From: a virus
Taxonomy: Duplodnaviria > Heunggongvirae > Uroviricota > Caudoviricetes
DNA length: 30,189 nt
Virus record (IMG/VR): IMGVR_UViG_2663762810_000004
Span: 1-30,189 of that record
Strand: one strand, 5' to 3'
Within the stretch, counting starts at the first letter, position 1. Every line of letters begins with the position of its first letter. Position numbers and translations under genes: made by a program. Positions 1,129 to 25,922 of this stretch are shown here, one piece after another. A model generated the notes under the pieces. The model was not told where the DNA came from, made no database searches, and saw nothing but the letters and a program-made list of their open reading frames with translations.

Positions 1129-1354
1129 CGCTGAGGATCCTTTGCAATTTTGGTGAATCAGATTTCTTGATAACCGGCGCAGCAAGTTCTCCAACCAATT
1201 CCGCATCCTCCCTAACTCTCCAGAGCCTACCTTGCTTCATTGCTGGTGGAGAAAAGAGATTTTGCTTAGCGTAACGGCGCAATGTCGAGACGCTAGGTGG
1301 ATTACTTCTGTATTTATCGGTTGCCCATTCTTCAAGAGTTAACATCTGAATCAT
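1109..1354 (-). CDS. xis: Excisionase (Xis-like small DNA-binding protein)
   Basis: 81 aa ORF immediately upstream of and overlapping int. The LTLEEWA...STLRRYAK...GRLWRV pattern is typical of phage excisionase/AlpA-type HTH proteins. Confidence 0.75.
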   Translation of the reverse strand: MIQMLTLEEWATDKYRSNPPSVSTLRRYAKQNLFSPPAMKQGRLWRVREDAELVGELAAPVIKKSDSPKLQRILSDGCETT

Positions 1355-1399
1355 GCGTTATTCTCCATTTAATAACCCGGCTGCACCCGGCATACGTCA

Positions 1400-1702
1400 T
1401 TATAAATTATCGCTGGTTAGCTTTGGTGGAACAGCATAGAGAGGCCCAGGTGAGACATCAAAACGGCGCCAGCGTATATTACAGGTTCTCTCTTCACCTT
1501 TTTTGTGCCAGGCAACGACATCTGCCACTGGCTCGGCGTTCCTACCTGCCAACACCTCATCTACTACCTTCAACATATCCGCGAGAATGTAAGCTCTGTT
1601 CCCGCCGTTTGAGTACTGGGTATCATGCAGTAGGTGTTCACGTATCTGGTGTAGGCGATCGAGTGATACAGAACCGTTCGCCGGGTGGTTGTTAGTTGTC
1701 AT
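1400..1702 (-). CDS. Hypothetical prophage early protein
   Basis: 100 aa ORF in the leftward operon; its start overlaps the stop of the upstream ORF (coupled arrangement). No family recognised. Confidence 0.55.
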   Translation of the reverse strand: MTTNNHPANGSVSLDRLHQIREHLLHDTQYSNGGNRAYILADMLKVVDEVLAGRNAEPVADVVAWHKKGEERTCNIRWRRFDVSPGPLYAVPPKLTSDNL

Positions 1703-2028
1703 GCTGCCCCCCTACGTTGATGGCCCAGTGCGTGACGCGCTTCTATCGGGTCCTCTTCTTCGTATTCACCATTGACGCTTTTCACCATCGCCACGCAGCA
1801 TTCGTTGCAGCACCGATAGGACATAAGTTCGCCGTCGAATTTCCACGCCGTACTACGGTGAATTTCATCCTTTAAAATTACGCCAGCGCAAATGTGGCAT
1901 TTGTATTCACCTCGAGAGGTAACGATTTTGTTCGATAGTTCTGTATCGCATGGCGTACCGAAATCACCTTCGAAAAGATCAAAGTCCAGTGCGTCGTCTA
2001 AATCCTGTTTGTTGAGTGAGTTAGTCAT
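1699..2028 (-). CDS. Hypothetical Cys-rich small protein, possibly zinc-binding. Start taken at the internal Met (MTNSLNK) at 2026-2028.
   Basis: Multiple CxxC-like cysteine pairs (CHIC ... CCNECC). The ATG at 2026-2028 overlaps the TAA stop (2021-2023) of the upstream gene. Confidence 0.55.
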   Translation of the reverse strand: MTNSLNKQDLDDALDFDLFEGDFGTPCDTELSNKIVTSRGEYKCHICAGVILKDEIHRSTAWKFDGELMSYRCCNECCVAMVKSVNGEYEEEDPIEARHALGHQRRGAA

Positions 2029-2365
2029 TCCAGGCCTCCAGCTCATTCTGAATCTCTTCGTCGATTTCGTCATTGGTGGCGTCTTCGTTCAGATAGGCGT
2101 GCGCCTCTTTGAAATACTTGTCGCGGCGTTCGTCATACCAGGCAGAGAACTCAGGCGACCAGGCATGGGTATGTCCGAAAAAATCGACTCTGGCGTTATC
2201 TTCTGCGAGACGCTCAACCATGCAGTAAGCTGTGATCAAACCGCATTCACGGATGTACCCACGCAGGTCGCGCTTGCGCCAGTACGGGCTATATTTCGAG
2301 TCGCAGCGGCTTTTAAATTCGACAGTCCAGCGACGGATGCAACGTGCGTTCAGTGATTTACTCAT
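2021..2365 (-). CDS. Hypothetical prophage early protein
   Basis: 114 aa ORF in the same leftward operon, with start/stop overlaps on both neighbours. Confidence 0.55.
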   Translation of the reverse strand: MSKSLNARCIRRWTVEFKSRCDSKYSPYWRKRDLRGYIRECGLITAYCMVERLAEDNARVDFFGHTHAWSPEFSAWYDERRDKYFKEAHAYLNEDATNDEIDEEIQNELEAWND

Positions 2366-2616
2366 TGAGTTGCTCCCTGTCTGGCTCTATTCAATAACTG
2401 GTTAAACATCATGGTTAGGCTGTTACTGCACCCAAATGGCATATCGTTAACACGGTATGTTGGAATGCCCTTGCGAACACCTGACTTCACGATCCGGCCG
2501 GTGCCATAGAGTTGCGATAATGCGCCAGCGACCGCGGGTGTCTTTTTGTTCATACCTTTGGCGATTTCACCGCTGGTGGTATTCGGATGAGCCTGGAGAT
2601 ATTCAAATACGGTCAT
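2362..2616 (-). CDS. Small hypothetical protein, possibly winged-helix DNA-binding
   Basis: 84 aa; the N-terminal segment (EYLQAHPNTTSGEIAKGM...) resembles wHTH regulators. Its start overlaps the stop of the upstream small ORF (ATGA). Confidence 0.55.
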   Translation of the reverse strand: MTVFEYLQAHPNTTSGEIAKGMNKKTPAVAGALSQLYGTGRIVKSGVRKGIPTYRVNDMPFGCSNSLTMMFNQLLNRARQGATQ

Positions 2617-2789
2617 GGCGTTTTACCTTTACGTTCCTGTTCCAGTTGCACCAGAGACTCTTTTAATGCTGCGAACGTAGCGTCCAGTCTGGTGGCAACT
2701 TCGCGCATAAGCGGTGCATGCTTTGGTGGCAGTTCAGCAACGGAGGCAAAAGCCTCCGTAACGAGTTCTTTTACCTTCATGCGGCGCAT
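2614..2789 (-). CDS. Small hypothetical protein (about 58 aa), below the ORF-track size cutoff
   Basis: Hand translation of the minus strand gives MRRMKVKELVTEAFASVAELPPKHAPLMREVATRLDATFAALKESLVQLEQERKGKTP. A GGAG lies about 9 nt upstream and the stop overlaps the next start (ATGA). Confidence 0.4.
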
Positions 2790-2832
2790 TGGCGCAGCTC
2801 CGCCAGTTCGTTAAAGCGTTGCGCACAGGGGG

Positions 2833-3270
2833 TTGCGCCTTCCGGATGAGAAGATCCGCTCTGTCATGAGGGAAAGCGACATAGTGCCTTCCCCGTCTGC
2901 AACCAGCCTCGTGCAGAAGAAAGCGAAGAAGATCCTCACGCTCTCTGTTGATCCGGAGTCTCCTGAATCTTTCATGCTCAGGCCAAAACGCCGCCGCTGG
3001 GTAAATGAGACATACACCCGCTGGGTTAAAACACAACCCTGTGAGTGTTGCCGACGGCCAGCAGATGATCCGCACCATATCGTAGGGCACGGTTTGGGTG
3101 GTACAGCAACAAAAGCCCATGACCTCTTCGTGATCCCTCTGTGCAGAGAGTGCCACGACGAGTTACACGCCGATGTACCGGCATTCGAGCAGAAGCATGG
3201 TACGCAGCTTGAGCTGCTACTGCGTTTTATGGATCGGGCGCTGGCGATCGGCGTAATTGCGAAAGCTTAA
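2833..3270 (+). CDS. HNH-like Cys/His zinc-binding protein (DUF968/YdfU-like or NinG-like) upstream of Q
   Basis: Motif PCECC...HHIVGHG...LCRECHDELH. Position immediately upstream of the Q-like gene matches the recalled ydfU-quuQ arrangement of the Qin prophage. Confidence 0.5.
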   Translation: MRLPDEKIRSVMRESDIVPSPSATSLVQKKAKKILTLSVDPESPESFMLRPKRRRWVNETYTRWVKTQPCECCRRPADDPHHIVGHGLGGTATKAHDLFVIPLCRECHDELHADVPAFEQKHGTQLELLLRFMDRALAIGVIAKA

Positions 3271-3981
3271 GTGTATGGAGCGCAAAGAAGCATGAATCAA
3301 CAAGACCTGAATTTTGTAAGAATAGAATTGCGCCGCGCGCTACCTGACCTCTCTGGGGGAACAAAAGGGCAGCTTGAGGCTTTCAGTGAACACCCACCAG
3401 CAGACAAAAATGCCACCCCGCGCCGTGGAATTCATCTCGTCGAACTCGAAGGAGAGAAGGGGCCTCGCTTTGTTAACTCGCTTTCCGCGCCATTGTATGT
3501 ATTGGAAACACGCAGCCGCTGCAGGCCAATGCCGCCGATAAAAGATGCGGAATTTGAGTCCGCGCCGTGGCGTAGGGCAGTGTCCGCGCTTAGTGGATAC
3601 CAGCAGGCCTGGTTGCGGTACTGCTACGGTTTTGACCTTAGCTATAAGCACCAGGTGATGATGTGTGAATACGTCTGGAAAACTTATCAGAAATGCCTGG
3701 GTGATAATTCCCTTCAGGAGCGCGTAGTAAAGAAACTGATTGGCCTGGTATGGCTGGCAGGGCAGGAAATTGCCGCAACCAGAAATAATGAAACCTATAA
3801 AGACTATGCTGGTGCAGCGTTGGCCCGCATGGTTAGCGTTGATCGTTCGACATGGTTGCGTGTCTATTCAGGGCACTGGGCTGGGTTAAAGGCCGCTTTT
3901 ACCCAGCTTGATGAATCTGCGTTGGCAATGGCTCTTGAATACTATGAGGAAGAAGAAGCCCTCAAAGTGGCAGAAATGTAA
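3271..3981 (+). CDS. Putative late-gene antitermination protein Q-like (QuuQ-type)
   Basis: 236 aa ORF placed between the nin-like gene and a tR'-like terminator ahead of the lysis genes. Family assignment is from gene context and recalled similarity only. Confidence 0.45.
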   Translation: MYGAQRSMNQQDLNFVRIELRRALPDLSGGTKGQLEAFSEHPPADKNATPRRGIHLVELEGEKGPRFVNSLSAPLYVLETRSRCRPMPPIKDAEFESAPWRRAVSALSGYQQAWLRYCYGFDLSYKHQVMMCEYVWKTYQKCLGDNSLQERVVKKLIGLVWLAGQEIAATRNNETYKDYAGAALARMVSVDRSTWLRVYSGHWAGLKAAFTQLDESALAMALEYYEEEEALKVAEM

Positions 3982-13249: not shown

Positions 13250-14509
13250 ATGTTCATTCCCCAGATGTTTCGGGGTAAATCTCAGTCTGGTGGTGGTTTC
13301 TGGCAGGCGATGCTGGGTGGGGTGAGTTCCAGCCAGAGCAAGGCGGGGATCATTATCACTCCTGAAACCGCACTGGCGTTATCGGCGGTCCGGGCATGCG
13401 TAACGCTTCTGGCAGAATCGGTGGCGCAGTTGCCGTGTGAACTTTACAGGCGAGGCGCTAACGGAGGCCGTGAACGGGCGACTGACCACCCTGTTTATGA
13501 TCTGATTCATTCCCAGCCCAACAAAAAAGACACCTCGTTTGAATACTTTGAGCAGCAACAGGGCCTGCTCGGGCTGGAGGGAAATTGCTACTCGATCATC
13601 GACAGGGACGGGAAAGGGTATCCCCGCGAATTAATCCCGGTTAATCCCAAAAAAGTCATCGTCCTGAAAGGGCCTGACGGGATGCCCTATTATGAACTCC
13701 CCGAAATTGGCGAAACGTTGCCAATGCGCATGATGCATCATGTGAAGGTTTTCTCGCTGGATGGTTATATCGGTAGCTCTCCGATCCAGACGAACGCAGA
13801 CGTTCTTGGGCTGAACCTGGCCGTTGAAGAGCATGCTTCTCAGGTTTTTCGCCGTGGCACAACGATGAGCGGCGTTATTGAGCGACCAAAGGAGGCTCCG
13901 ACAATAAAGAACCAGGAGAAGATTGACCAACTTCTTGCTAAATGGACGGATCGTTATTCCGGTATGCGTAATGCCTTTTCTGTCGCATTGCTTCAGGAAG
14001 GGATGAGCTACAAACAGCTATCTCAGGATAATGAGAAAGCGCAGCTGTTGCAGTCCCGCCAGTGGGGCGTGGAGGAAGTTTGCCGACTCTATAAAATCCC
14101 GCCTCATATGGTGCAGATGCTGGCGAAAGCCACAAATAACAACATTGAGCATCAGGGGCTGCAGTTCGTCATGTATACGCTTTTAGCCTGGCTGAAACGC
14201 CATGAAGGCGCATTAATGCGCGATCTGCTTTTACCCAGCGAGCGCGGTAGTCTGTACATTGAATTCAATGTATCCGGCCTGCTGCGCGGGGATCAGAAGT
14301 CACGCTATGAATCTTATGCGCTGGGCCGTCAGTGGGGCTGGTTATCGGTTAATGACATTCGCCGCATGGAGAACCTTCCTCCCATCGCCGGTGGGGACAA
14401 ATACCTGACGCCTCTGAATATGGTCGACAGTAAACAAATCTTACCTGGCAATAACGCGCCAACAGCTAAACAACTGGCAGAAATCGAAACTATTCTGGCC
14501 AGAGCCTGA
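13250..14509 (+). CDS. Phage portal protein (HK97-family-like)
   Basis: 419 aa ORF in the canonical position after TerL and before the prohead protease. Confidence 0.8.
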   Translation: MFIPQMFRGKSQSGGGFWQAMLGGVSSSQSKAGIIITPETALALSAVRACVTLLAESVAQLPCELYRRGANGGRERATDHPVYDLIHSQPNKKDTSFEYFEQQQGLLGLEGNCYSIIDRDGKGYPRELIPVNPKKVIVLKGPDGMPYYELPEIGETLPMRMMHHVKVFSLDGYIGSSPIQTNADVLGLNLAVEEHASQVFRRGTTMSGVIERPKEAPTIKNQEKIDQLLAKWTDRYSGMRNAFSVALLQEGMSYKQLSQDNEKAQLLQSRQWGVEEVCRLYKIPPHMVQMLAKATNNNIEHQGLQFVMYTLLAWLKRHEGALMRDLLLPSERGSLYIEFNVSGLLRGDQKSRYESYALGRQWGWLSVNDIRRMENLPPIAGGDKYLTPLNMVDSKQILPGNNAPTAKQLAEIETILARA

Positions 14510-14521
14510 TTATTCCCCGCT

Positions 14522-15466
14522 ATGCGGGCTGACCTGGTATATCTCATGACAACAAAATTACTTAACCTGCCGCACCTCGCAGAAATGGTCTTCGGTGTGC
14601 CTCATTACGCAACACAACAGACGATGGACGCCGTGAAGGCGGTATTGCTTCCCCGTATTCAGGGAACGGTGACGGATCCGGTCATTACGATGGCGCTAAA
14701 TCCGGATGATTCGCCATCCCCGGAAGAGCTTCAGCCAGCCGGTGGTATCGCGGTTATTCCCGTTCACGGGATTCTGGTCCCCCGGCGCGGGCAAATTACA
14801 GCGATGTGTACCGAACTGACAAGCTATGAGCGAATCCGCAGCCAGCTGCATTCGGCATTAAATGACCCATCCATCAGTGAAATCGTTCTGGATATTAATT
14901 CAGGCGGCGGTTTAGCGCCCGGGTGCAAAGAGCTGGCTGATTATATTTATCAGTCGCGAGAAATGAAACCGATCACCGCTATTGTGAACTTTAATGCCTT
15001 CTCTGCCGCGTATTTTATCGCGTCGGCCTGCAGCAAGATTGTCGCCAGTCAGACCAGTGGCGTTGGCTCTATCGGGGTGATCATGGAGCACCTTGATACG
15101 TCAAAGCTGGAAGAGATCATGGGCGTAAAATTTACTGCACTCTACCGGGGAGATAACAAGAATAATGGCACGTCACATGCCGCGTTGAGTGAATCGGCTC
15201 TGACGATGTTCAACAAAATGCTCGACGACATGTACGAGACATTTACCTCCTCAGTGGCTGAGTATCGTGGTCTTAAACAGCAGGCAGTGACAGATACCCA
15301 GGCGGGAATCTACTTCGGCGCTGATGCTATTTCTGCTGGTCTTGCTGATGAAGTTTCGGATCCTCAGTCTGCGATTAATGCCATTGCGGCAAAGTACAAA
15401 CAACCTTCACAAACCACTTCCATAAAGCTGCAGGCAGCCGCGATGGACCTGCAAACCAGAATGTAA
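14522..15466 (+). CDS. Prohead/head maturation protease, S49 (SppA/ClpP-like) family
   Basis: S49 peptidase-like core (ISEIVLDINSGGGLAPGCKELADYIY ... SGVGSIGVIMEH) between portal and capsid. Confidence 0.85.
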   Translation: MRADLVYLMTTKLLNLPHLAEMVFGVPHYATQQTMDAVKAVLLPRIQGTVTDPVITMALNPDDSPSPEELQPAGGIAVIPVHGILVPRRGQITAMCTELTSYERIRSQLHSALNDPSISEIVLDINSGGGLAPGCKELADYIYQSREMKPITAIVNFNAFSAAYFIASACSKIVASQTSGVGSIGVIMEHLDTSKLEEIMGVKFTALYRGDNKNNGTSHAALSESALTMFNKMLDDMYETFTSSVAEYRGLKQQAVTDTQAGIYFGADAISAGLADEVSDPQSAINAIAAKYKQPSQTTSIKLQAAAMDLQTRM

Positions 15467-15541
15467 CCCGGCGCTCACGCGTCATTACCACCAGAAAGCA
15501 GCCTTAGTGCTGTTTTTTTATACCTGAAAAGAGAGAAAACT

Positions 15542-16333
15542 ATGCCACAGATTGAAGAATTACGTCGTCAGCGTGCGGGTATTAATGAGCAGGTTCAGGC
15601 CCTGGCCACGATTGAAACTACCGGTGGAACGCTGACAGCGGAGCAGTTAACCGAATTTGCCAGCATGCAGCAGCAGTTCACGGATATCAGCGCCAAAATT
15701 GAGCGTCTGGAAGCGGCTGAACGTGCCGCGGCGCTTGTTGCCACACCGGTTAGAGGCACACAGCAGGCTCCTGGTGTCATCGTTAAGGCGGAGCCAAAGC
15801 AATATACCGGGGCAGGCATGACCCGTCTGGTGATGTCGATTGCAGCAGCGGAGGGTAACATCCAGGAGGCTGCAAAATTTGCGGCGGAAGAACTGAATGA
15901 CCCGTCTGTCTCGATGGCCATCAGCACTGCCGCTGCGTCAGGCGGCGTTCTTATTCCGCAAAACCTTCACAGCGAAGTGATTGAGCTACTGCGCGATCGT
16001 ACCATCGTTCGTAAGCTGGGCGCGCGCTCCATTCCGCTGCCGAACGGCAATATGGCGCTGCCGCGTCTGGCCGGTGGAGCGACGGCGAACTATACCGGGG
16101 AAGGTAAGGATGCGAAAACATCAGAAGCGCGCTTTGACGATGTGAAACTCACTGCGAAAACCATGATTGCGATGGTGCCCATCTCAAATCAGCTCATTGG
16201 CCGCGCAGGTTTTAACGTTGAACAACTGGTATTGCAGGATATTCTGACGGCGATTTCTGTTCGCGAAGATACCTGCACCGTCAGAGAGTACGTCGTTCAT
16301 TTTGACGGTCAGGCTGTTTTCTGCCACCGCTGA
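15542..16333 (+). pseudogene. Major capsid protein, truncated (N-terminal delta domain plus part of the capsid fold only)
   Basis: Coiled-coil delta-like N terminus and capsid-like middle region, but only 263 aa. The ORF ends in unrelated sequence and is followed about 130 bp later by tail gene L, with all intervening head-tail genes absent. Confidence 0.65.
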
Positions 16334-16462
16334 ACAACTGATCAACATTCCAGCCATCACTAATATTCTTAATTCCATGATTAATGTTCCTTTTCTGTCA
16401 ATGACATCAATATTCTTATGTGATGGAGAGGTCTTTTTTCAACCAGTTTTACAGAAAGGATT

Positions 16463-17164
16463 TTGATTATGCAGGACGTCCCACAGGACACGCTTAACGA
16501 AACCACCCGAACAGAGCAGTCCGCCCGAATCAGTCTCTGGGAATTTGATGCAACAGCCATCGGAGGGGAGCGTTATTTTTTCTGTAATGAGCCCAATGAA
16601 AAAGGCGAGCCGGTGACCTGGCAGGGGCGACAGTATGAGCCTTACCCGATACAGTCAGATGATTTTGAGATGAACGGCGTCGGCCCGGCGCCGCGTATCA
16701 GCCTTGTCGTGTCGAATATGTTTGGTCTGGTGACGGGCATGGCGGAAGATCTGCAGAGTCTGACCGGCGCGCGGGTGGTGCGTCGCCTGGTGTATGCAAA
16801 ATTTCTCGATGCGGTGAATTTCGTGAACGGCAATCCGGATGCCGATCCGGAACAGGAGGCCGTGGCCTGGTATGTGGTGGAGCAGCTCTCGGAACTCACA
16901 TCCGGCACTGCCACATTTATTCTCGCTAACCCTGTTGAAACTGACGGCTCGGTGTTTCCGGCACGTATTATGCTGGCGGATATCTGTACGTGGACATACC
17001 GGGGAGATGAGTGCGGGTATGACGGCCCGCCGGTAGCCGATGAATTTGATAAACCCACCTCAGATCCTGCAAAGGATCAATGCAGCAGATGTCCTGCAGG
17101 ATGCAGGCTACGTAACAATATTGCCAGAGCAGGCTTTTTTATCTCCATTAACAAACTTTCCTGA
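16463..17164 (+). CDS. L: Minor tail protein L (lambda gpL-like)
   Basis: Matches the recalled lambda gpL nearly along its length (NEPNEKGEPVTWQGRQY...PYPIQ, TWTYRGDECGY, SINKLS). Confidence 0.9.
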   Translation: MIMQDVPQDTLNETTRTEQSARISLWEFDATAIGGERYFFCNEPNEKGEPVTWQGRQYEPYPIQSDDFEMNGVGPAPRISLVVSNMFGLVTGMAEDLQSLTGARVVRRLVYAKFLDAVNFVNGNPDADPEQEAVAWYVVEQLSELTSGTATFILANPVETDGSVFPARIMLADICTWTYRGDECGYDGPPVADEFDKPTSDPAKDQCSRCPAGCRLRNNIARAGFFISINKLS

Positions 17165-17174
17165 CGGTGACGTT

Positions 17175-17918
17175 ATGACAAAAACAGAACAGGATATTCT
17201 GGCGCATGCCGCACAGTGTGCACCGGCGGAATCGTGCGGGTATGTGGTCAGAACGGATGCGGGGGAGATGTACCTTCCCTGTGAAAATCTGTCTGCGGAA
17301 CCCACCATGTATTTTCGCATGGTGCCGGAGGCGTATCTCCGTGCGCAGGCGGCAGGCGACATCGTGGCGCTGGTCCACAGTCACCCGGGCGGCCAGCCGT
17401 TTCTGAGTGAAGGGGACCGATGTTTGCAGTTACAGAGTGCACTTCCCTGGTGGCTGGCCTGCGACGGTAAAGTGCATAAGTTTCGCTGCGTGCCGCATCT
17501 CACAGGGCGGAGTTTTGAACATGGTGTGACGGACTGCTACACACTGCTGCGGGACGCCTGGCATCTGGCGGGGATCGAACTGCCTGATTTTGAACGCCAG
17601 GATGGCTGGTGGGATCGTGGGGAGAATATGTATCTGGATAATTTTCCTGACATTGGTTTTTACCCGGTAGAGCCTGAGGCCACGCAGACGGGGGATGTGT
17701 TGATTTGCTGCTTCGCATCGTCGGTGGCGAATCATGCCGCAGTGATCTGTGACAATGGGGAGCTGTTACACCATATTCCTGACCAGTTAAGCAAACGAGA
17801 GAGGTATACCGACAAATGGCAACGCCGCACACACTCAATCTGGCGTCACCGGGAATGGCGCGCATCTGCCTTTACGGGGATTTACAACGATTTGGTCGCC
17901 GCATTGATCTCAGCATAA
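17175..17918 (+). CDS. K: Tail assembly protein K (lambda gpK-like; JAB/MPN plus NlpC/P60 domains). Start taken at MTKTEQD (17175).
   Basis: Matches recalled lambda gpK (CAPAESCGYVV, VALVHSHPGG, KFRCVPHLTGR, HGVTDCYTL, NHAA). Confidence 0.9.
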   Translation: MTKTEQDILAHAAQCAPAESCGYVVRTDAGEMYLPCENLSAEPTMYFRMVPEAYLRAQAAGDIVALVHSHPGGQPFLSEGDRCLQLQSALPWWLACDGKVHKFRCVPHLTGRSFEHGVTDCYTLLRDAWHLAGIELPDFERQDGWWDRGENMYLDNFPDIGFYPVEPEATQTGDVLICCFASSVANHAAVICDNGELLHHIPDQLSKRERYTDKWQRRTHSIWRHREWRASAFTGIYNDLVAALISA

Positions 17919-18526
17919 ATTCAGCGGCGGAAGGGCTGCATGCGCTGTTTATGCAGATACCGGAATTCCGTCAAAAACTGAACGAAGGCTGGTACCAGGT
18001 CCGGATTTCAGGACAGGATATTGCTTCTGATGAGGTGACCGCCCGGCTGCATGAGCCTTTACTGCCGGGGGCTGTCATTCATATCGTGCCCCGGGCCGAA
18101 GGTGCAAAATCCGGCTGGGGGGGGATAATTCTGGGGGGAATTCTGGTCGCCGCTTCATTTATCCCCGGGCTGAATGCAATGGTGGCGACCGCCATGCTTT
18201 CATTTGGTATCTCAGCGACACTGGGGGGCGTGGCGCAGTTACTGACCCCGAAAGTGAATACGGCGGATGGCAATACAGCCGATAACGGTAAGCAGAGTAC
18301 ATACTTTTCCTCACTCGAAAACATGATTGCCCAGGGGAATCCGATGCCGGTACCGTACGGTGAAATTATGGTGGGGTCCCGGCGGATTTCGCAGACCCTG
18401 AGTACACGGGATGAGAGCTCGCCGGAGAAGGTGATTAATTATGGCGGACCGTTCGCCCGGTACGAGGAGCTCATGTTACAGATTGCCGGGCTGCCCATTA
18501 CGAAGCCTCGAGTTATTGTGCACTGA
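17816..18526 (+). CDS. I: Tail assembly protein I (lambda gpI-like), with a divergent C terminus
   Basis: N-terminal 200 aa match recalled lambda gpI (PGMARICLYGDLQRFGRRIDL ... DNGKQSTYFSSLENM...PVPYGE); the last 35 aa or so do not. Overlaps K as in lambda. Confidence 0.85.
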   Translation: MATPHTLNLASPGMARICLYGDLQRFGRRIDLSINSAAEGLHALFMQIPEFRQKLNEGWYQVRISGQDIASDEVTARLHEPLLPGAVIHIVPRAEGAKSGWGGIILGGILVAASFIPGLNAMVATAMLSFGISATLGGVAQLLTPKVNTADGNTADNGKQSTYFSSLENMIAQGNPMPVPYGEIMVGSRRISQTLSTRDESSPEKVINYGGPFARYEELMLQIAGLPITKPRVIVH

Positions 18527-18595
18527 CGCAGTTTCACAGCGTACCGATACTGACCGCCCTGATGGCGGTTTTGTCATTTATGGAGTGAGTAAAAC

Positions 18596-18985
18596 ATGGG
18601 TGGGAAGAACAAGAAAAAGCAGAGCACGCCGTATGAAGAGCCGGATAACCTGAAATCGGTACAGGAACTGAGCTTCATTGACGCCATCGGGGAAGGGCCG
18701 ATCGAGGGACTGGTTAAGGGGATGCAAAGTATCCTTATCAACAACACCCCCCTGGTAAATGACGATGACAGCTACAACGTACACGGTGTCACAGCAATTT
18801 ATAACGCCGGTGAACAGGAGCAGACCCCGCTGGAGGGGTTTGAAGATACCGGCGTGGAGGTCATGGTCAACGCTGAGATCAAACAGGATGCCCCCATTAC
18901 CCGGACCATTTCGGCGCGGAAGATGTTGTGCTTACAGGCACTTGGCAGGCTATGGGGTATTACCGGGAGGCCTATTATCAACTAA
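18596..18985 (+). pseudogene. J: Tail tip/host-specificity protein J, N-terminal fragment only (about 106 aa of J, then unrelated tail)
   Basis: Residues 1-106 match the lambda gpJ N terminus (DNLKS.Q...DAI.EGPIEG ... AGEQEQTP.EGFE ... PITRTI). The frame then runs into unrelated sequence and stops; lambda J is over 1100 aa. Confidence 0.8.
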
Positions 18986-19018
18986 CGCTTTTCCAGCGCA
19001 TTCGTTGAGGGGAAATCG

Positions 19019-19621
19019 ATGACAACCATAACTGATGCCCGTCACGGGCGATATAACGGGAACGGGACGATTTCGGTTCAGGTGCTGTTCAGTGACAGTG
19101 AGCGCTATCTTCCCTATACCGCGGCAGCTCATGACCCGACTGACTATGGTCAGCAGCTCTATTCAGACCTGGTCGCCGGTAAATACGGCGAAGTGACACC
19201 GTTTACCGTTACTGAGGCGATGCTGGCGTCAGCCAGACAGGCTAAGCGGGATGAAATTAACGCCTGGCGCGATGCGCAGGAAGAGAAAGAGTATCTGATG
19301 ACCTGGAACGGCAGGCGGTGGGATTATGGCAAAAAAACGCAGTCCCGGATGAGTACCTCTGTGACCATGGCATCACGAAATGTCCTGCCGGATGGCTTTG
19401 CCTGGACTGATGGTGATAACACTGTCGTGCCGGTGACAGCGGAAGAACTGCTCGCGCTGGCAGACGCCATTGAAAAGGCGATGTTTGAAAAGGGCATGCA
19501 GATTAACCAGCGTCAGTTGCAGATGAAAGCCGAAATGAATGCACTGACTGTGCTGGACGCCATCAGAAATTACAGGGTGGGCTGGAATGAATCTGTGGAG
19601 GACATAACCAGAACAGGGTAA
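19019..19621 (+). CDS. Tail-associated protein, possibly DUF4376-like (tail fibre assembly/chaperone-like)
   Basis: 200 aa ORF with good start context after the J fragment. The C-terminal helical region (KRDEINAWRDAQE ... LLALADAIEKAM) resembles the recalled DUF4376 pattern; assignment is tentative. Confidence 0.55.
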   Translation: MTTITDARHGRYNGNGTISVQVLFSDSERYLPYTAAAHDPTDYGQQLYSDLVAGKYGEVTPFTVTEAMLASARQAKRDEINAWRDAQEEKEYLMTWNGRRWDYGKKTQSRMSTSVTMASRNVLPDGFAWTDGDNTVVPVTAEELLALADAIEKAMFEKGMQINQRQLQMKAEMNALTVLDAIRNYRVGWNESVEDITRTG

Positions 19622-19635
19622 GGGCGGGAGACAGT

Positions 19636-19950
19636 ATGGGAACCAGGGTACTGGCAGTGGGAAGAGCGTGGCAGCAACTGACCGACGGTGAGGAGAATAT
19701 GATTTTTACGTTTTCTGGTGTCATCGAACTGTGTGACAGCGATATCAGGCCGGGAGAGTCTGCTCTTTCCCTGAGGTACCCCGGACAAACCATTATTATT
19801 TCCCCGCCCACAAAGGCATGGGTGAGGGCTGCGGGTTATGACAATACGGTCAGGCTGTTCATTAGTGACAGAGTAGCAGCCAGCGTCCCTGTGATTAAAA
19901 ACAGAGTGGGCCAGAAGGGGCCGGAGGCGTTATGGCAACCAGAGAAATGA
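19636..19950 (+). CDS. Small hypothetical protein, paralog 1 of a tandem pair
   Basis: 104 aa; the N terminus (TRVLAVGRAWQQLTDGE) is paralogous to the next ORF (TREMIVGREWQELTDGS), as is AAGYDNTVRL vs ASGYDGSVRV. Confidence 0.5.
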   Translation: MGTRVLAVGRAWQQLTDGEENMIFTFSGVIELCDSDIRPGESALSLRYPGQTIIISPPTKAWVRAAGYDNTVRLFISDRVAASVPVIKNRVGQKGPEALWQPEK

Positions 19951-20165
19951 TTGTGGGGCGGGAGTGGCAGGAGCTGACTGACGGCAGTCAGACCGTTTTT
20001 GTCCAGATAAACGGGGTGGCTGATGTCTGCTCCAGCGCCCGGAAACCTGACACCGCGCATCCTGCGCACAATATGAATAATGAAAAATTCACGACCACCC
20101 CCCCGGACCGGCTGTGGATCAGAGCATCAGGATATGACGGCAGTGTCCGGGTCATTGTGACATAG
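19932..20165 (+). CDS. Small hypothetical protein, paralog 2 of a tandem pair
   Basis: 77 aa; shares N- and C-terminal motifs with the preceding ORF and overlaps its 3' end. Confidence 0.5.
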   Translation: MATREMIVGREWQELTDGSQTVFVQINGVADVCSSARKPDTAHPAHNMNNEKFTTTPPDRLWIRASGYDGSVRVIVT

Positions 20166-20174
20166 GAGATTAAG

Positions 20175-22232
20175 ATGCCCATTCTTGCACCAGGATTTTT
20201 GGGAGGCTCGTCCGCCGGGAATGGCGGCGGGCCGGTCTCTTCAGTTCAGCAGCCGGAATACTTCTATGTCATCCCGGTTGCCGGTCAGTCAAACGCGATG
20301 GCCTACGGCGAAGGGCTCCCCCTTCCAGACACGCTGGATGCGCCTCACCCGCGTATTAAACAGCTGGCCCGGCGCGCCACGGTAACGCCCGGCGGCGATG
20401 CCTGCAAATACAACGACATTATTCCTCTCGATCACTGTCCGCACGATGTTCAGGACATGAGCGGGATCAGCCACCCGAGAGCGGACCTCAGTAAAGGGCA
20501 ATATGGGTGTGTCAGCCAGACGCTGCACATTGCCAGAAAACTCCTGGCCTGGATCCCCGATAACGCAGGTATTCTGATGGTGCCCTGTTGTCGCGGTGGC
20601 TCTGCCTTCACGCAGGGAGTGGACGGCACTTTCAACGTTGTCAGTGGTGCCAGCGAAACCGCAACCCGATGGGGGGCGGGAAAGCCGTTGTACCGTGACC
20701 TGCTCACCCGCACGAAAGCAGCGCTCGACAGCAACCCGAAAAATATGCTGCTGGCGGTATGCTGGATGCAGGGTGAATTTGATATGACAGGGGCGGCTTA
20801 TGCACAGCAGCCTGCGCTGTTCGACGCTATGGTCAGGCAGTTCCGTACCGACCTGGCGGATTACGCGGGGCAGTGCCCGGACTTCCGGCCTGACAGTGTG
20901 CCGTGGCTGTGCGGGGACACCACGTACTACTGGAAGCGCAACTATCCCGCCCAGTACGATGCTGTTTATGGCGCGTACAGTAAAACCAGTGTCAGCGGCG
21001 TACATTTTGTGCCGTTCATGGTCAGCGAGGATGGCACGAACACCCCTACCAACGCCCCGGCTGAGGATCCGAATGTTCCGGCTGCGGGGTATTTCGGCTC
21101 GGCATCCCGTACTTCTGCCAACTGGACCAGCTCGATCCGCAACAGTCATTTCAGTTCGTGGGCCCGGCGAAACATCATCGCAGAACGTATGGCGGCGGCC
21201 ATTCTGCTGCACGCCGGGCGACGGTCACTGCTGGCGGCCCCGGTTAGTGGAAGTGCAGCGTCTTCAACGGGCGATACAGGCAATGTGGGAACGAGTACGC
21301 TGAAATACGCCCCTGTTGTGGAGGACGCCGGTTATAACGGGCGGCGCGGGGACGGGACGCCGGAGGCCCAGGGCTGGTCAGCCAGCGGCGGTAATTTTAA
21401 CGTGGCACCACACCCGGATGGTAAAGGGGGGCATGTGCTGCAGATCCGCAGAAAAGCCAGTGAAGTCTGGAAAATGGAACGGGCAACCCGACAGGCCGCT
21501 GATTTGTTACGGTATGGTGGCGAGGTGCAGTGCAACTTCCGGCTCGTTAATACACTGACGGCAAACCAGTTTGCTTTTGGCTGCTATCTGCTGGTGAATG
21601 AATCGGATGTTCCGGCCGGAGCCTCGTTACGGCTGAAAGCCGAGGGCACCACACCGGCGCTGATGAATTTCTTCATACAGACGAATGCTACAGATTTGAA
21701 TCTGATGATGCACTGCAAACCCGACAATATCAGGCTGGGTACGTACGGTGCGTACAATCAGGACTGGCATTCGTTCAGGGTCGTTTACCATGGCGGAAAC
21801 ACAGCCCGGGCCACGCTTTATCTCGATGGTGAGTCGAAGGGCGAGTTCACGCTGGCGTACTCGCCGGGGGCTGTCGATGCAGGCATGCTGCAACTGACAA
21901 ATATCACCTCCTCACCGACCTATGGATGCAATATTAAGGATTTTACCGTCAAAATTTACCGCGACGATGCCATAGTCAGTCTGCCTGACGACGATGTGTC
22001 CAGTCTGATTTATTTTCCGGCGGGGGAGCGCGGCGGGAAAGTGGTGTTACCGGATGCGAAAATCAGCGCAGGAAACACAGTGCAGGTGGTGGTGAACAAT
22101 GCCGGTATCATCGCCATTGAACCAGCAAGCAGCAACGTACTGCTTAACAATCTGCCTTCTTCTGCAACCACTGACAGAAGTGTCACGCTGGTTCAGACCA
22201 GTCTGGACGGGAAGACCTGGGTGATTACCTGA
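20175..22232 (+). CDS. Tail-fibre-region protein with an N-terminal SGNH hydrolase/sialate-O-acetylesterase-like domain and a C-terminal lectin-like region (NanS-p-like)
   Basis: N-terminal FYVIPVAGQSNAMAYGE (GQSN motif) and CWMQGEFDM are typical of the SGNH/SASA esterase family. 685 aa; the 3' end is duplicated downstream at about 25216-25383. Confidence 0.75.
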   Translation: MPILAPGFLGGSSAGNGGGPVSSVQQPEYFYVIPVAGQSNAMAYGEGLPLPDTLDAPHPRIKQLARRATVTPGGDACKYNDIIPLDHCPHDVQDMSGISHPRADLSKGQYGCVSQTLHIARKLLAWIPDNAGILMVPCCRGGSAFTQGVDGTFNVVSGASETATRWGAGKPLYRDLLTRTKAALDSNPKNMLLAVCWMQGEFDMTGAAYAQQPALFDAMVRQFRTDLADYAGQCPDFRPDSVPWLCGDTTYYWKRNYPAQYDAVYGAYSKTSVSGVHFVPFMVSEDGTNTPTNAPAEDPNVPAAGYFGSASRTSANWTSSIRNSHFSSWARRNIIAERMAAAILLHAGRRSLLAAPVSGSAASSTGDTGNVGTSTLKYAPVVEDAGYNGRRGDGTPEAQGWSASGGNFNVAPHPDGKGGHVLQIRRKASEVWKMERATRQAADLLRYGGEVQCNFRLVNTLTANQFAFGCYLLVNESDVPAGASLRLKAEGTTPALMNFFIQTNATDLNLMMHCKPDNIRLGTYGAYNQDWHSFRVVYHGGNTARATLYLDGESKGEFTLAYSPGAVDAGMLQLTNITSSPTYGCNIKDFTVKIYRDDAIVSLPDDDVSSLIYFPAGERGGKVVLPDAKISAGNTVQVVVNNAGIIAIEPASSNVLLNNLPSSATTDRSVTLVQTSLDGKTWVIT

Positions 22233-22239
22233 AAAAAAA

Positions 22240-22271
22240 GCCGCTTCTGTAACAGGAAAGACAGAAGCGGC
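22240..22271 (-). terminator. Hairpin terminator at the 3' end of the esterase gene; the U-tract is on the minus strand
   Basis: Perfect 11 bp stem GCCGCTTCTGT/ACAGAAGCGGC preceded on the plus strand by A8 (a T-run on the minus strand). Duplicated at about 25389-25420. Confidence 0.5.
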
Positions 22272-22335
22272 CATGTAGTGCTACTTGCGTTTTTATAAGG
22301 CTATTTTCGGTAGTAAATATGCAGCGTCCTCGTTA

Positions 22336-22920: not shown

Positions 22921-22952
22921 ATATGTATTTCACCATCAGGCGGAACAAGTCA

Positions 22953-23333
22953 ATGAGTAAATTCACCACCCCGGCGATACTGGAAATGCTGGGTCATTAC
23001 AAATGGCGGGTGTACGAACCCTTCGAGTTTTACCTCTCGGATGACAACAGCGATGTGATTAAGGTCCCGGCGGGGTTTGTGACCGATCTGGCAAGCGTGC
23101 CCCGGATATTCTGGACATTCCTCCCACCTGATGGGCGGTATGCCAAAGCAGCTATCATTCATGATTACATGTACGATAATGCGCTACGGACAAAGAAAGA
23201 AGCCGATCTCATTTTTCTGGACGGGATGCGGGTACTGGGTGTGCCAGAGTGGAAGCGTTCGGTGATGTACCACGCTGTACGGATGTTTGGTAAAGGGCGG
23301 TATGCGCAGAATAGAACCCTTCCAGGTGTTTAG
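22953..23333 (+). CDS. DUF1353-like small protein, copy 1. Start taken at MSKFTT (22953).
   Basis: Conserved VPAGFVTDLASVPR ... AAIIHDYMYD pattern recalled for DUF1353. Near-identical second copy at 25923-26303 and a decayed copy at 24808. Confidence 0.6.
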   Translation: MSKFTTPAILEMLGHYKWRVYEPFEFYLSDDNSDVIKVPAGFVTDLASVPRIFWTFLPPDGRYAKAAIIHDYMYDNALRTKKEADLIFLDGMRVLGVPEWKRSVMYHAVRMFGKGRYAQNRTLPGV

Positions 23334-23423
23334 TCACCAGTTCCGGAAGATCAGCTCGGCTGAGTCGGGCTTCTATCGACTGAAATAACTTCTCCATTTC
23401 GTTCTTGTACATATGAATTCCAC

Positions 23424-23460
23424 AGAAAAAATGCCACTTATCTGGCTTCCAGATAAGTGG
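23424..23460 (-). terminator. Rho-independent terminator for the minus-strand cargo gene; also present in the duplicated copy at about 26394-26430
   Basis: Perfect palindrome CCACTTATCTGG-cttc-CAGATAAGTGG preceded on the plus strand by AAAAAAT (a U-tract on the minus strand). Confidence 0.5.
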
Positions 23461-23485
23461 CCAGTCAACGGTAGAACGCTTCTAC

Positions 23486-24370
23486 TTAGCTTTTTGTGAA
23501 ACGGTAAAATAAATTGGGCTCACTGACAATATACAAATTAAATTTGTCATCGATAGTAATGCCCTCTGCTTGTTTAATATCCTTTGTTAATCCCGACCAC
23601 CCTGCATCCAGATAGAGTCGATCGGTAATACGTCCCACAGGATTAACTTCAACCACTATTTTTGATTCATCTGAAAGTATCAGTAGTGAAGATGTTAGAG
23701 GATGGTAATGCAGCCCAGATACATCCTTCAAAGACGAAGTGATAACGGTTGGAAAAATTTTAATATGCGCATCATCATTCTGGGGAAATATTCTGCTAAT
23801 GATTATTGGTATTTTTTCCTTTGCTGAATATAAATGCTGTTTCTCTTTATCCCAGGCCAGTCCTTCCAGTCCGTTGTTTTTGGGAGTGGCGTAATCATTA
23901 AACTTAATCTTCGAAATGACAGTATAACTAAAAGCATGTAAGTCTAATTTTACCATCCAGGCTGTGCTGTTTTTCTCACTTCCTATATAGAATACATCTT
24001 TACCAACCCACTCTACAGCTTCTGTATCCTCAAATTCAGGTAAGGTCATACTTCCCACTCTGTCGCCTTCCTTTGTCAGCCATATCAGTTCTGGTGGGTT
24101 ATTAACAACAGCAAACAGAAGTTTGTGTTTATCTGACCAGGTCAGGCCAGACAGATTATTCTTTACACCTTCAACAGGTTTGCCCTCTATGTCTGCCCGA
24201 TATGCGCTAAGATTAAGGCTTGTTGGGATATCTTCATATTTTTCATATAATCGATAGATATATATTATATCCTTATAGATGTACATAAAACAAACCACAA
24301 AAATAGCCACAAAAATTAAATACCTTAAATATATGCTCAATATTTCATCCAAATAATAAAGTAAAGCCAA
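23486..24370 (-). CDS. AT-rich cargo protein with N-terminal hydrophobic segment and beta-rich body (possibly YjiK/SdiA-regulated-like propeller; unconfirmed)
   Basis: 294 aa ORF in a strongly AT-rich block flanked by the two DUF1353 repeat copies and followed by a terminator. N terminus LIFVAIFVVCFMYIY is hydrophobic; the true start may be a later Met. Confidence 0.6.
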   Translation of the reverse strand: MALLYYLDEILSIYLRYLIFVAIFVVCFMYIYKDIIYIYRLYEKYEDIPTSLNLSAYRADIEGKPVEGVKNNLSGLTWSDKHKLLFAVVNNPPELIWLTKEGDRVGSMTLPEFEDTEAVEWVGKDVFYIGSEKNSTAWMVKLDLHAFSYTVISKIKFNDYATPKNNGLEGLAWDKEKQHLYSAKEKIPIIISRIFPQNDDAHIKIFPTVITSSLKDVSGLHYHPLTSSLLILSDESKIVVEVNPVGRITDRLYLDAGWSGLTKDIKQAEGITIDDKFNLYIVSEPNLFYRFTKS

Positions 24371-24965: not shown

Positions 24966-25383
24966 GGGGACAGAGCCCTGGTTTCAGAGTTGACAGTTTG
25001 CCGTGGTTGTGCCGAGGAGCACAACGTACTAATCATTGCAAAACGCATGTCTGGCGATGCAGGTATGCTGCAGCTGGCAAATACCACCTCGTAATCGACC
25101 TGTAGATGCAATATTAAGGATTTCAGAGTCAAAATTTACCGGGATGTGTAGTGATCAGTCGTTTTTTTCTGTGGGAAGCTGCCGCGGGAAATCAGTACTG
25201 CTGGATACAGAAACCAGCGTGGGGAATACGGTACAGGTGGTGGCGAACAATGCCGGTATCATCGCCATTGAACCAGCAAGCAGCAACGTACTGCTTAACA
25301 ATCTGCCTTCTTCTACAACCACTGACAGAAGTGTCACGCTGGTTCAGACCAGTCTGGACGGGAAGACCTGGGTGATTACCTGA
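24966..25383 (+). pseudogene. Decayed remnant of the esterase tail-fibre gene 3' end (internally deleted, with in-frame stops)
   Basis: Nucleotide similarity to 20885-20930 and 21880-22232 of the intact gene, with stops. The last 160 bp or so (VGNTVQVVANNAGIIAIEPASSNVLLNNLPSS...TWVIT) are near-identical to 22075-22232, as is the downstream hairpin. Confidence 0.6.
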
Positions 25384-25494
25384 AAAAAAAGCCGCTTCTG
25401 TAACAGGAAAGACAGAAGCGGCTAGGTAGTGCTACTTGCGTTTTTATAAAGATTATTTCAACAATGAAAAGTACAACCTGTTATATGCATCGCT

Positions 25495-25890: not shown

Positions 25891-25922
25891 AGATTTATTT
25901 CACCAGCAGACGGAATAAGTCA

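Follow-up and report, generated by a model that had tools for sequence, protein, structure and literature searches.

A short J-like gene in a defective lambdoid prophage is very probably the scar of a deletion through J and stf

In the 30,189-nucleotide stretch of viral DNA analysed here (the window), a gene that begins like lambda J ends after 129 codons, next to an I gene whose C terminus departs from that of lambda I. Do these two features mark a lesion in the tail tip, separate from the damage to the capsid gene upstream, or does a genuinely short J-like gene belong at this position? An initial annotation, made from the letters alone, took both features as signs of a lesion. Comparison with other copies of the same prophage, found by exact-protein look-ups, makes it very probable that the short J-like gene is a deletion scar, left in a defective prophage by the loss of most of J and stf, and that the I protein is normal for its lineage. 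Between 16.4 and 19.7 kb the window holds the following features (numbers such as L034 designate contigs with which it was compared).

16463-17164, plus strand: L (Pfam Phage_tail_L, 1e-89)
17040-17918, plus strand: K, with JAB and NlpC/P60 domains
17816-18526, plus strand: I, tail-tip assembly gene, intact, 236 aa (Pfam Lambda_tail_I, 3e-14; PHROG 32, 7e-67)
18446-18523, plus strand: C-terminal extension of I, residues 211-236, ending ITKPRVIVH, absent from lambda I
18596-18985, plus strand: J-like ORF, 129 aa, without any Pfam domain
18596-18910, plus strand: J remnant (central tail fibre / tip attachment), codons 1-105, 100% identical to L034 and L016
18910-18911, no strand: deletion junction, blunt and without microhomology, from comparison with L019 and the flanking bases
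18911-18985, plus strand: out-of-frame end of the J stub ORF, 24 codons (SARKMLCLQALGRLWGITGRPIIN) and a stop, from translation
18911-19008, plus strand: 3´ end of stf, made up of 2 bases of an Ile codon, 31 codons (GAEDVVLTGTWQAMGYYREAYYQLTLFQRIR) and a stop
19019-19621, plus strand: DUF4376 gene, 200 aa, intact (Pfam DUF4376, 2e-19; PHROG 1141, 7e-78)

Homology to J is confined to the front of the 129-aa ORF. Against the J families only residues 2-108 align (PHROG 1727, 1e-41; PHROG 31, 5e-41), and residues 3-109 pair with residues 2-108 of lambda gpJ (8iyk chain J, E 6e-32). A tblastn search with the stub gave matches in 1510 phage records; residues 3-107 are aligned in all 30 of the matches listed, and among these the homology ends at residue 107, short of the 24-codon tail. 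The initial annotation had described a truncated N-terminal stub of about 106 J residues followed by about 23 unrelated ones. That description is borne out, and the sister copies of the prophage place the boundary after 105 J codons, with 24 out-of-frame codons beyond it, the window being 100% identical to the intact relatives L034 and L016 up to 18910.

Undeleted relatives display the complete arrangement. L034, a contig from a human gut metagenome, matches the window at 100% over 15275-16271 and 16270-18910 and carries a complete head-tail module together with J. L016 is 100% identical over 16270-18910 and then continues with J, and L020 (GCA_016668345.1) is intact from capsid through stf. 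A J of 1166 aa followed by an stf of 419-489 aa is found in L020, L021 and L009. The IMG/VR records L009 and L015 match window positions 16270-18924 at 99.4% and 18919-20221 at 95.0%, with 4445 extra bases between the two blocks. In L009 these extra bases hold the rest of the 1166-aa J, a protein with FNIII-A, Phage-tail_3, Ig_J, Ig_J_second, Phage_Tail_Tip and Ig_GpJ_C domains, and an intact 421-aa stf with a phage_tail_N domain (Pfam, 1e-33).

The breakpoint itself is located to the base by copies that keep more of J and stf. Up to 18910 the window equals positions 8455-11095 of L019 (GCA_016109105.1) at 100% identity, and from 18911 it equals L019 from 12768 onward, again at 100%; between these two window positions L019 has 1672 extra bases and L031 has 2240. 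The last J base, 18910, ends codon 105, and the first stf base, 18911, is the second base of an Ile codon. The flanking bases share no microhomology at 18910/18911, and the join is hence blunt. Read in the frame starting at 18880, the sequence runs to ...GAEDVVLTGTWQAMGYYREAYYQLTLFQRIR* with its stop at 19006-19008, and 18913-19005 (frame 1) translates to the C terminus of the L019 fibre ORF (J::Stf). The 421-aa stf of L009 ends in a sequence 95% identical to this remnant. J and the stf remnant lie in different frames, one base off, so that past the join J runs through 24 nonsense codons (SARKMLCLQALGRLWGITGRPIIN) to a stop. The breakpoint and the origin of both flanks are fixed by these comparisons: the sequence past the break, whose source the initial annotation had wanted traced, is the last 31 codons of stf and their stop. 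The phage_tail_N N-terminal domain and the fibre shaft are not in the window.

The distal flank had the look of an stf 3´ end also because the fibre C termini of prophage P-EibA and phage GER2 directly precede DUF4376 genes, and stf followed by DUF4376 is the order in L009, L017, L020, P-EibA and GER2 alike. The genes on either side, L, K and I on the 5´ side and DUF4376 on the 3´ side, are unaffected by the J/stf deletion.

Could the junction instead record recombination with a different prophage, the stf-DUF4376 module having come in from outside through a mosaic exchange? There is indeed a drop in identity to L009 and L020, which exceeds 99% on the left side of the junction and is 92-95% on the right side, and five mismatches to intact J cluster at 18911-18920. 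However, the right-hand allele is found at 100% identity in L019 and L031, attached there to much more of both stf and J within the same prophage, so that this allele was already resident and a plain deletion suffices. The sister copies likewise identify the five clustered mismatches as the first bases of the resident stf, and we rejected both junction mutagenesis and a mosaic boundary within J as explanations for them. We consider an exchange with another prophage very unlikely, and retain deletion as the explanation of the junction.

Searches of wider collections returned little that resembles this locus. Exact searches of IMG/VR with DNA sequence patterns from both sides of the junction found none, and among the GTDB species-representative genomes nothing was found with the J stub or with the DUF4376 protein. 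Across 5426 complete E. coli genomes, at least 80% of 17800-19700 or of 18880-20200 was covered nowhere, the listed matches being 69-81% identical; the GenBank phages contain no close DNA relative of either interval, the best being Gifsy-2 with 73% identity over the K/I part.

The records are short-read draft assemblies, which invites the thought that the truncation arose during assembly or sequencing. The scar was found, though, in two NCBI assemblies and in two SRA runs that had been assembled independently, at 99.995-100% identity across as much as 20 kb; because the junction recurs in this way it is not an assembly error, and we assign an artefact of either kind practically no probability. 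Copies of the prophage come from the isolates GCA_000948905.1, GCA_018390955.1, GCA_016109105.1, GCA_958326645.1, GCA_900448675.1, GCA_054079675.1 and GCA_016668345.1 and from SRA runs.

The deletion would have been an illegitimate, homology-independent event that joined J codon 105 (18910) to the 32nd-from-last codon of stf (18911), perhaps through end joining or through replication slippage without homology. Lost with it were J codons 106-1166 and almost the whole of stf, some 4.4 kb when measured against L009 and 4.7 kb against L020, figures that are approximate in that the closest intact stf, that of L009, is 95% identical at its 3´ end. In no sampled relative does an intact stf coincide with a 3´ end that matches the window at 100%.

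The J remnant stops within a domain. FNIII-A spans residues 72-215 of lambda gpJ (PMC10721106) and, by Pfam, residues 88-208 of the intact J of L009, and the end of the stub falls inside it. The N-terminal gpJ homology (residues 1 to about 110, with the HDII-insertion start and FNIII-A) is present in the stub. Hub domains HDII-HDIV (Pfam Phage-tail_3), the Ig/FNIII domains, the central fibre and the receptor-binding domain are absent from the 129-aa ORF, and the full set of missing domains is found in the 1166-aa J of L009. What the stub retains is the opening strands of the HDII-insertion domain and roughly one third of FNIII-A, and nothing more. Judged by its domain content, it cannot build a tail tip, every hub domain being gone, and its best interpretation is as a pseudogene that does not itself serve any function. 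The sister strain L025, which has lost part of L together with K, I and the stub, is consistent with such a lack of function.

A quite different proposal would make the 129-aa protein a genuine short J-like adaptor or a decoy, for example one that poisons the tail-tip assembly of superinfecting lambdoid phages. The ORF is intact, it has a ribosome-binding context identical to that of real J, intact L, K and I precede it, and Salmonella assemblies contain other short J N-terminal ORFs. Yet the exact stub is present on 4 contigs only, its last 24 residues are stf read out of frame, its end cuts FNIII-A in two (PMC10721106), and L025 has deleted it along with its neighbors. The initial annotation had named a known short J-like adaptor, conserved intact in functional phages, as the alternative to a lesion; no such adaptor emerged, the phage matches listed for the stub sitting in genes annotated J or host-specificity protein. 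The short J that is common in Salmonella (P0004, a 148-aa J N-terminal ORF on more than 500 Salmonella contigs) is just the front half of a J gene that has been split, with J divided into 148 and 832 aa in L017 (Salmonella, SRR35930348), and we rejected it as a parallel, since it is not a J-stf deletion. The prophage of L017 has a porin gene between M and L. An adaptor or decoy role strikes us as highly improbable, and we keep to the reading of the stub as a pseudogene.

The I protein has 236 aa when taken from its longest start (other starts chosen by gene callers lie further downstream, leave the stop unchanged and yield 223 or 191 aa), against 223 aa for lambda I. The two diverge over the last 10 or so aligned residues, after which the window protein has about 25 extra; these residues stand in place of the lambda-type ending (..VVVIGR*), which is not in window I. 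The Lambda_tail_I domain and the conserved C-terminal plug / beta-strand core are present (PHROG 32 over residues 12-201; invariant core columns). Thus far the initial annotation was right that I differs from lambda I at its C terminus. The difference is nonetheless not a lesion. The exact window I protein adjoins an intact J in L020 and L021, and the I of L009, also beside an intact J, has 236 aa, is 99% identical to window I and has an unchanged C terminus. A homologous extension is borne by Gifsy-2 I (STM1047, 234 aa). The best 120 I homologues, nearly all from Salmonella enterica, are 233-258 aa long and most cover 100% of the query; in an alignment of Gifsy-2 I with 12 homologues, nearly all of them Salmonella proteins, most share the terminal motif G(L/I)(P)ITKPRV..(R/H). 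Among GenBank phage records the full length of I is covered only by Gifsy-2, and the other listed matches end at residue 207-210, as lambda does.

Because the I terminus is unchanged beside an intact J, and because its extension is conserved, it is not part of the lesion; on these alignments, the long terminus is a trait of the lineage, a Gifsy-type variant, rather than damage. In lambda, the C-terminal part of gpI threads through the gpJ hub domains and plugs the tube (PMC11101478; PMC10721106), which makes it plausible that a lineage-specific I terminus co-varies with J.

How the J lesion relates to the damage in the head region can be judged from the capsid junction and from the states in which sister copies are found. 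The capsid deletion leaves two remnants.

15542-16333, plus strand: major capsid gene, truncated (the first lesion), codons 1-243 up to the junction at 16269-16271 (Phage_capsid profile positions 1-111 of 280)
16270-16378, minus strand: sodC remnant (Cu/Zn superoxide dismutase), codons 1-36, the right end of the first deletion

Mapped against L020 and L034, capsid codon 243 is fused through a 2-nt TA overlap to codon 36 of minus-strand sodC; in L009, positions 388-915 on the minus strand are Sod_Cu (1e-29). About 8.1 kb is missing at capsid::sodC relative to L034 and L020, comprising the genes for head completion, the tail tube, G/T, a 990-aa tape measure, M, Ail/Lom and most of sodC. In the intact phage Ail/Lom and sodC lie between M and L, as in Gifsy-2. 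The sampled states are these.

State B (L031, L033, L035): head region capsid::sodC; J codon 689 joined to stf codon ~227
State C (L019, L030, L032): head region portal::sodC with the same right end; in-frame J(1-596)::Stf(last 98 aa), 694 aa
State D (the window): head region capsid::sodC; J codon 105 joined to stf 31 codons before its stop
State E (L025): head region capsid::sodC; 16616-19118 missing, a stretch that reaches from L into DUF4376

The capsid::sodC junction is common to L024/L031, L025, L033 and L035, whose J/stf lesions differ from that of the window. Because the same capsid junction occurs with other J/stf lesions, the J lesion is separate from the capsid deletion, and in the window the L-K-I block is kept between the two junctions. 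A second tail-tip deletion, independent of that in the capsid gene, was what the initial annotation had proposed, and the sister copies agree. The independence of the two lesions is directly visible; as for order, we infer that the capsid deletion is the older and that the J lesion came later. State D does not derive from state C, because D retains 14345-16269, and C does not derive from D, because C retains J to codon 596. The difference of 1.67 kb between the window and state C is one from a state that cannot be the parent of the window. If the parent was already in state B, the sampled state compatible with the head region of the window, the step would have removed 2.24 kb. State D may have come from an intact J-stf in one step, or in two by way of a smaller, B-like deletion.

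The sister copies differ by 0-2 SNPs over 8-19 kb, and their four J/stf-region deletions are strictly nested: J689 to stf227, J596 to stf-98, J105 to stf-31, and L51 to DUF4376 codon 34. The portal::sodC copies of state C, which also lack 14345-16269, have a right end that coincides to the base with 16270. The nested states were found by look-up of flanking proteins, and both the nesting and the coincident endpoint may partly reflect that choice. By our own estimate, a random second deletion inside a remnant would span the old junction about one third of the time, and strict nesting alone is not statistically compelling. A 7-bp inverted repeat, or hairpin, lies right of 16270; it folds no better than shuffled sequence (z -1.4), and we rejected it as the cause of the coincident endpoints. 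It is conceivable, though we think it unlikely, that old junctions or their truncated products nucleate or select further deletions, such that erosion proceeds outward from scars and not at random.

The flanks and gene content identify the host element. The right flank (28254-30189) carries an icd' fragment, iraM, ymgK, ymgL and ycgX and is 95-96% identical to E. coli in the matches listed; most complete E. coli genomes match it at only 95-99%. Within it, iraM lies at 28766-29089 on the minus strand, and Pfam files iraM under PmrD. This flank is the icd attachment site of e14 and phage 21. A lambda-type integrase occupies 1-1206 on the minus strand and Q lies at 3271-3981, and the window I protein is named Escherichia coli at NCBI. 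With a chromosomal flank, a capsid gene cut at codon 243, about 8.1 kb of virion genes gone, and J and stf deleted, the element is a defective lambdoid, Gifsy-2-like prophage at the icd (e14) site of an Escherichia chromosome. Only about 2 kb (1207-3270) separates the integrase from the antiterminator Q. Of an HNH/NinG-like PHROG profile with 334 positions, an ORF at 2833-3270 matches just the C-terminal half, 189-334, and it seems that the region for immunity and replication has likewise been lost by deletion.

The other end of the prophage has a composition of its own. Past the fibre module, 19636-20165 is taken up by a tandem pair of small paralogous ORFs, each assigned to PHROG 4772, and a 685-aa SASA-like carbohydrate esterase with DUF6645 (PHROG 143) follows at 20175-22232. 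Further on a block is duplicated (21871-22298 with 25051-25449, and 22923-23477 with 25893-26448, at identities of 84% and 95%), and it consists of the 3´ end of the SASA/DUF6645 esterase gene and a DUF1353 gene. Between the two copies, at 23486-24370, the minus strand encodes an SdiA-regulated (SrgE-like) protein. The region with its two esterase/DUF1353 blocks looks like duplicated or mosaic cargo.

For annotation, 18596-18985 should be recorded as a J pseudogene fragment, 18911-19008 as an stf pseudogene fragment, and I as intact, its departure from lambda I being a property of the lineage. The process at work is ordinary prophage decay, and no new kind of system is involved. The locus is a well-resolved case of stepwise decay, and an intact parent still circulates, as the human gut metagenome contig attests with its 100% identity over the blocks it has in common with the window. 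Among host backgrounds that are near-identical, at least five different deletion states are represented, and these could serve the study of the rates and mechanisms of prophage erosion. What is unusual here is only the nested deletion series and the coincident 16270 endpoint.

Set beside known systems, the locus resembles lambda (gpJ, PDB 8IYK and 8XCG) in its gene order, L-K-I-J, and in an I-J spacer of about 60-70 nt. It differs in that the stub holds only 105 of some 1130-1170 J codons and is without HDII, HDIII, HDIV, FNIII-1/2, the central fibre and the receptor-binding domain. With lambda gpI and Gifsy-2 STM1047 (PF06805), window I shares the Lambda_tail_I domain, a hydrophobic middle and a DNGKQ.TYFSS..NM.AQGN..P..YGE..GSR core; lambda gpI has no extension of about 25 residues, whereas Gifsy-2 I has one, like window I. 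The stf remnant finds its likeness in prophage P-EibA, where an orf-401-like fibre ends ...GTWRAF...LTLFQRIV* and orf-191A (DUF4376) begins 13 nt on, and more generally in P-EibA and phage GER2, in which the fibre C-terminal motif GTW...LTLFQRI(R/V)* stands about 10-13 nt before the DUF4376 start; unlike those fibres, the window stf consists of the last 31 codons and has no start codon of its own. As a whole, the element is akin to e14, phage 21 and the defective lambdoid prophages of E. coli K-12 in its icd site, in its lambda-type integrase and in the loss of structural genes by deletion, and it differs from e14 and phage 21 in its backbone, an HK97-type head module combined with a Gifsy-2-like tail module with Ail/Lom and sodC.
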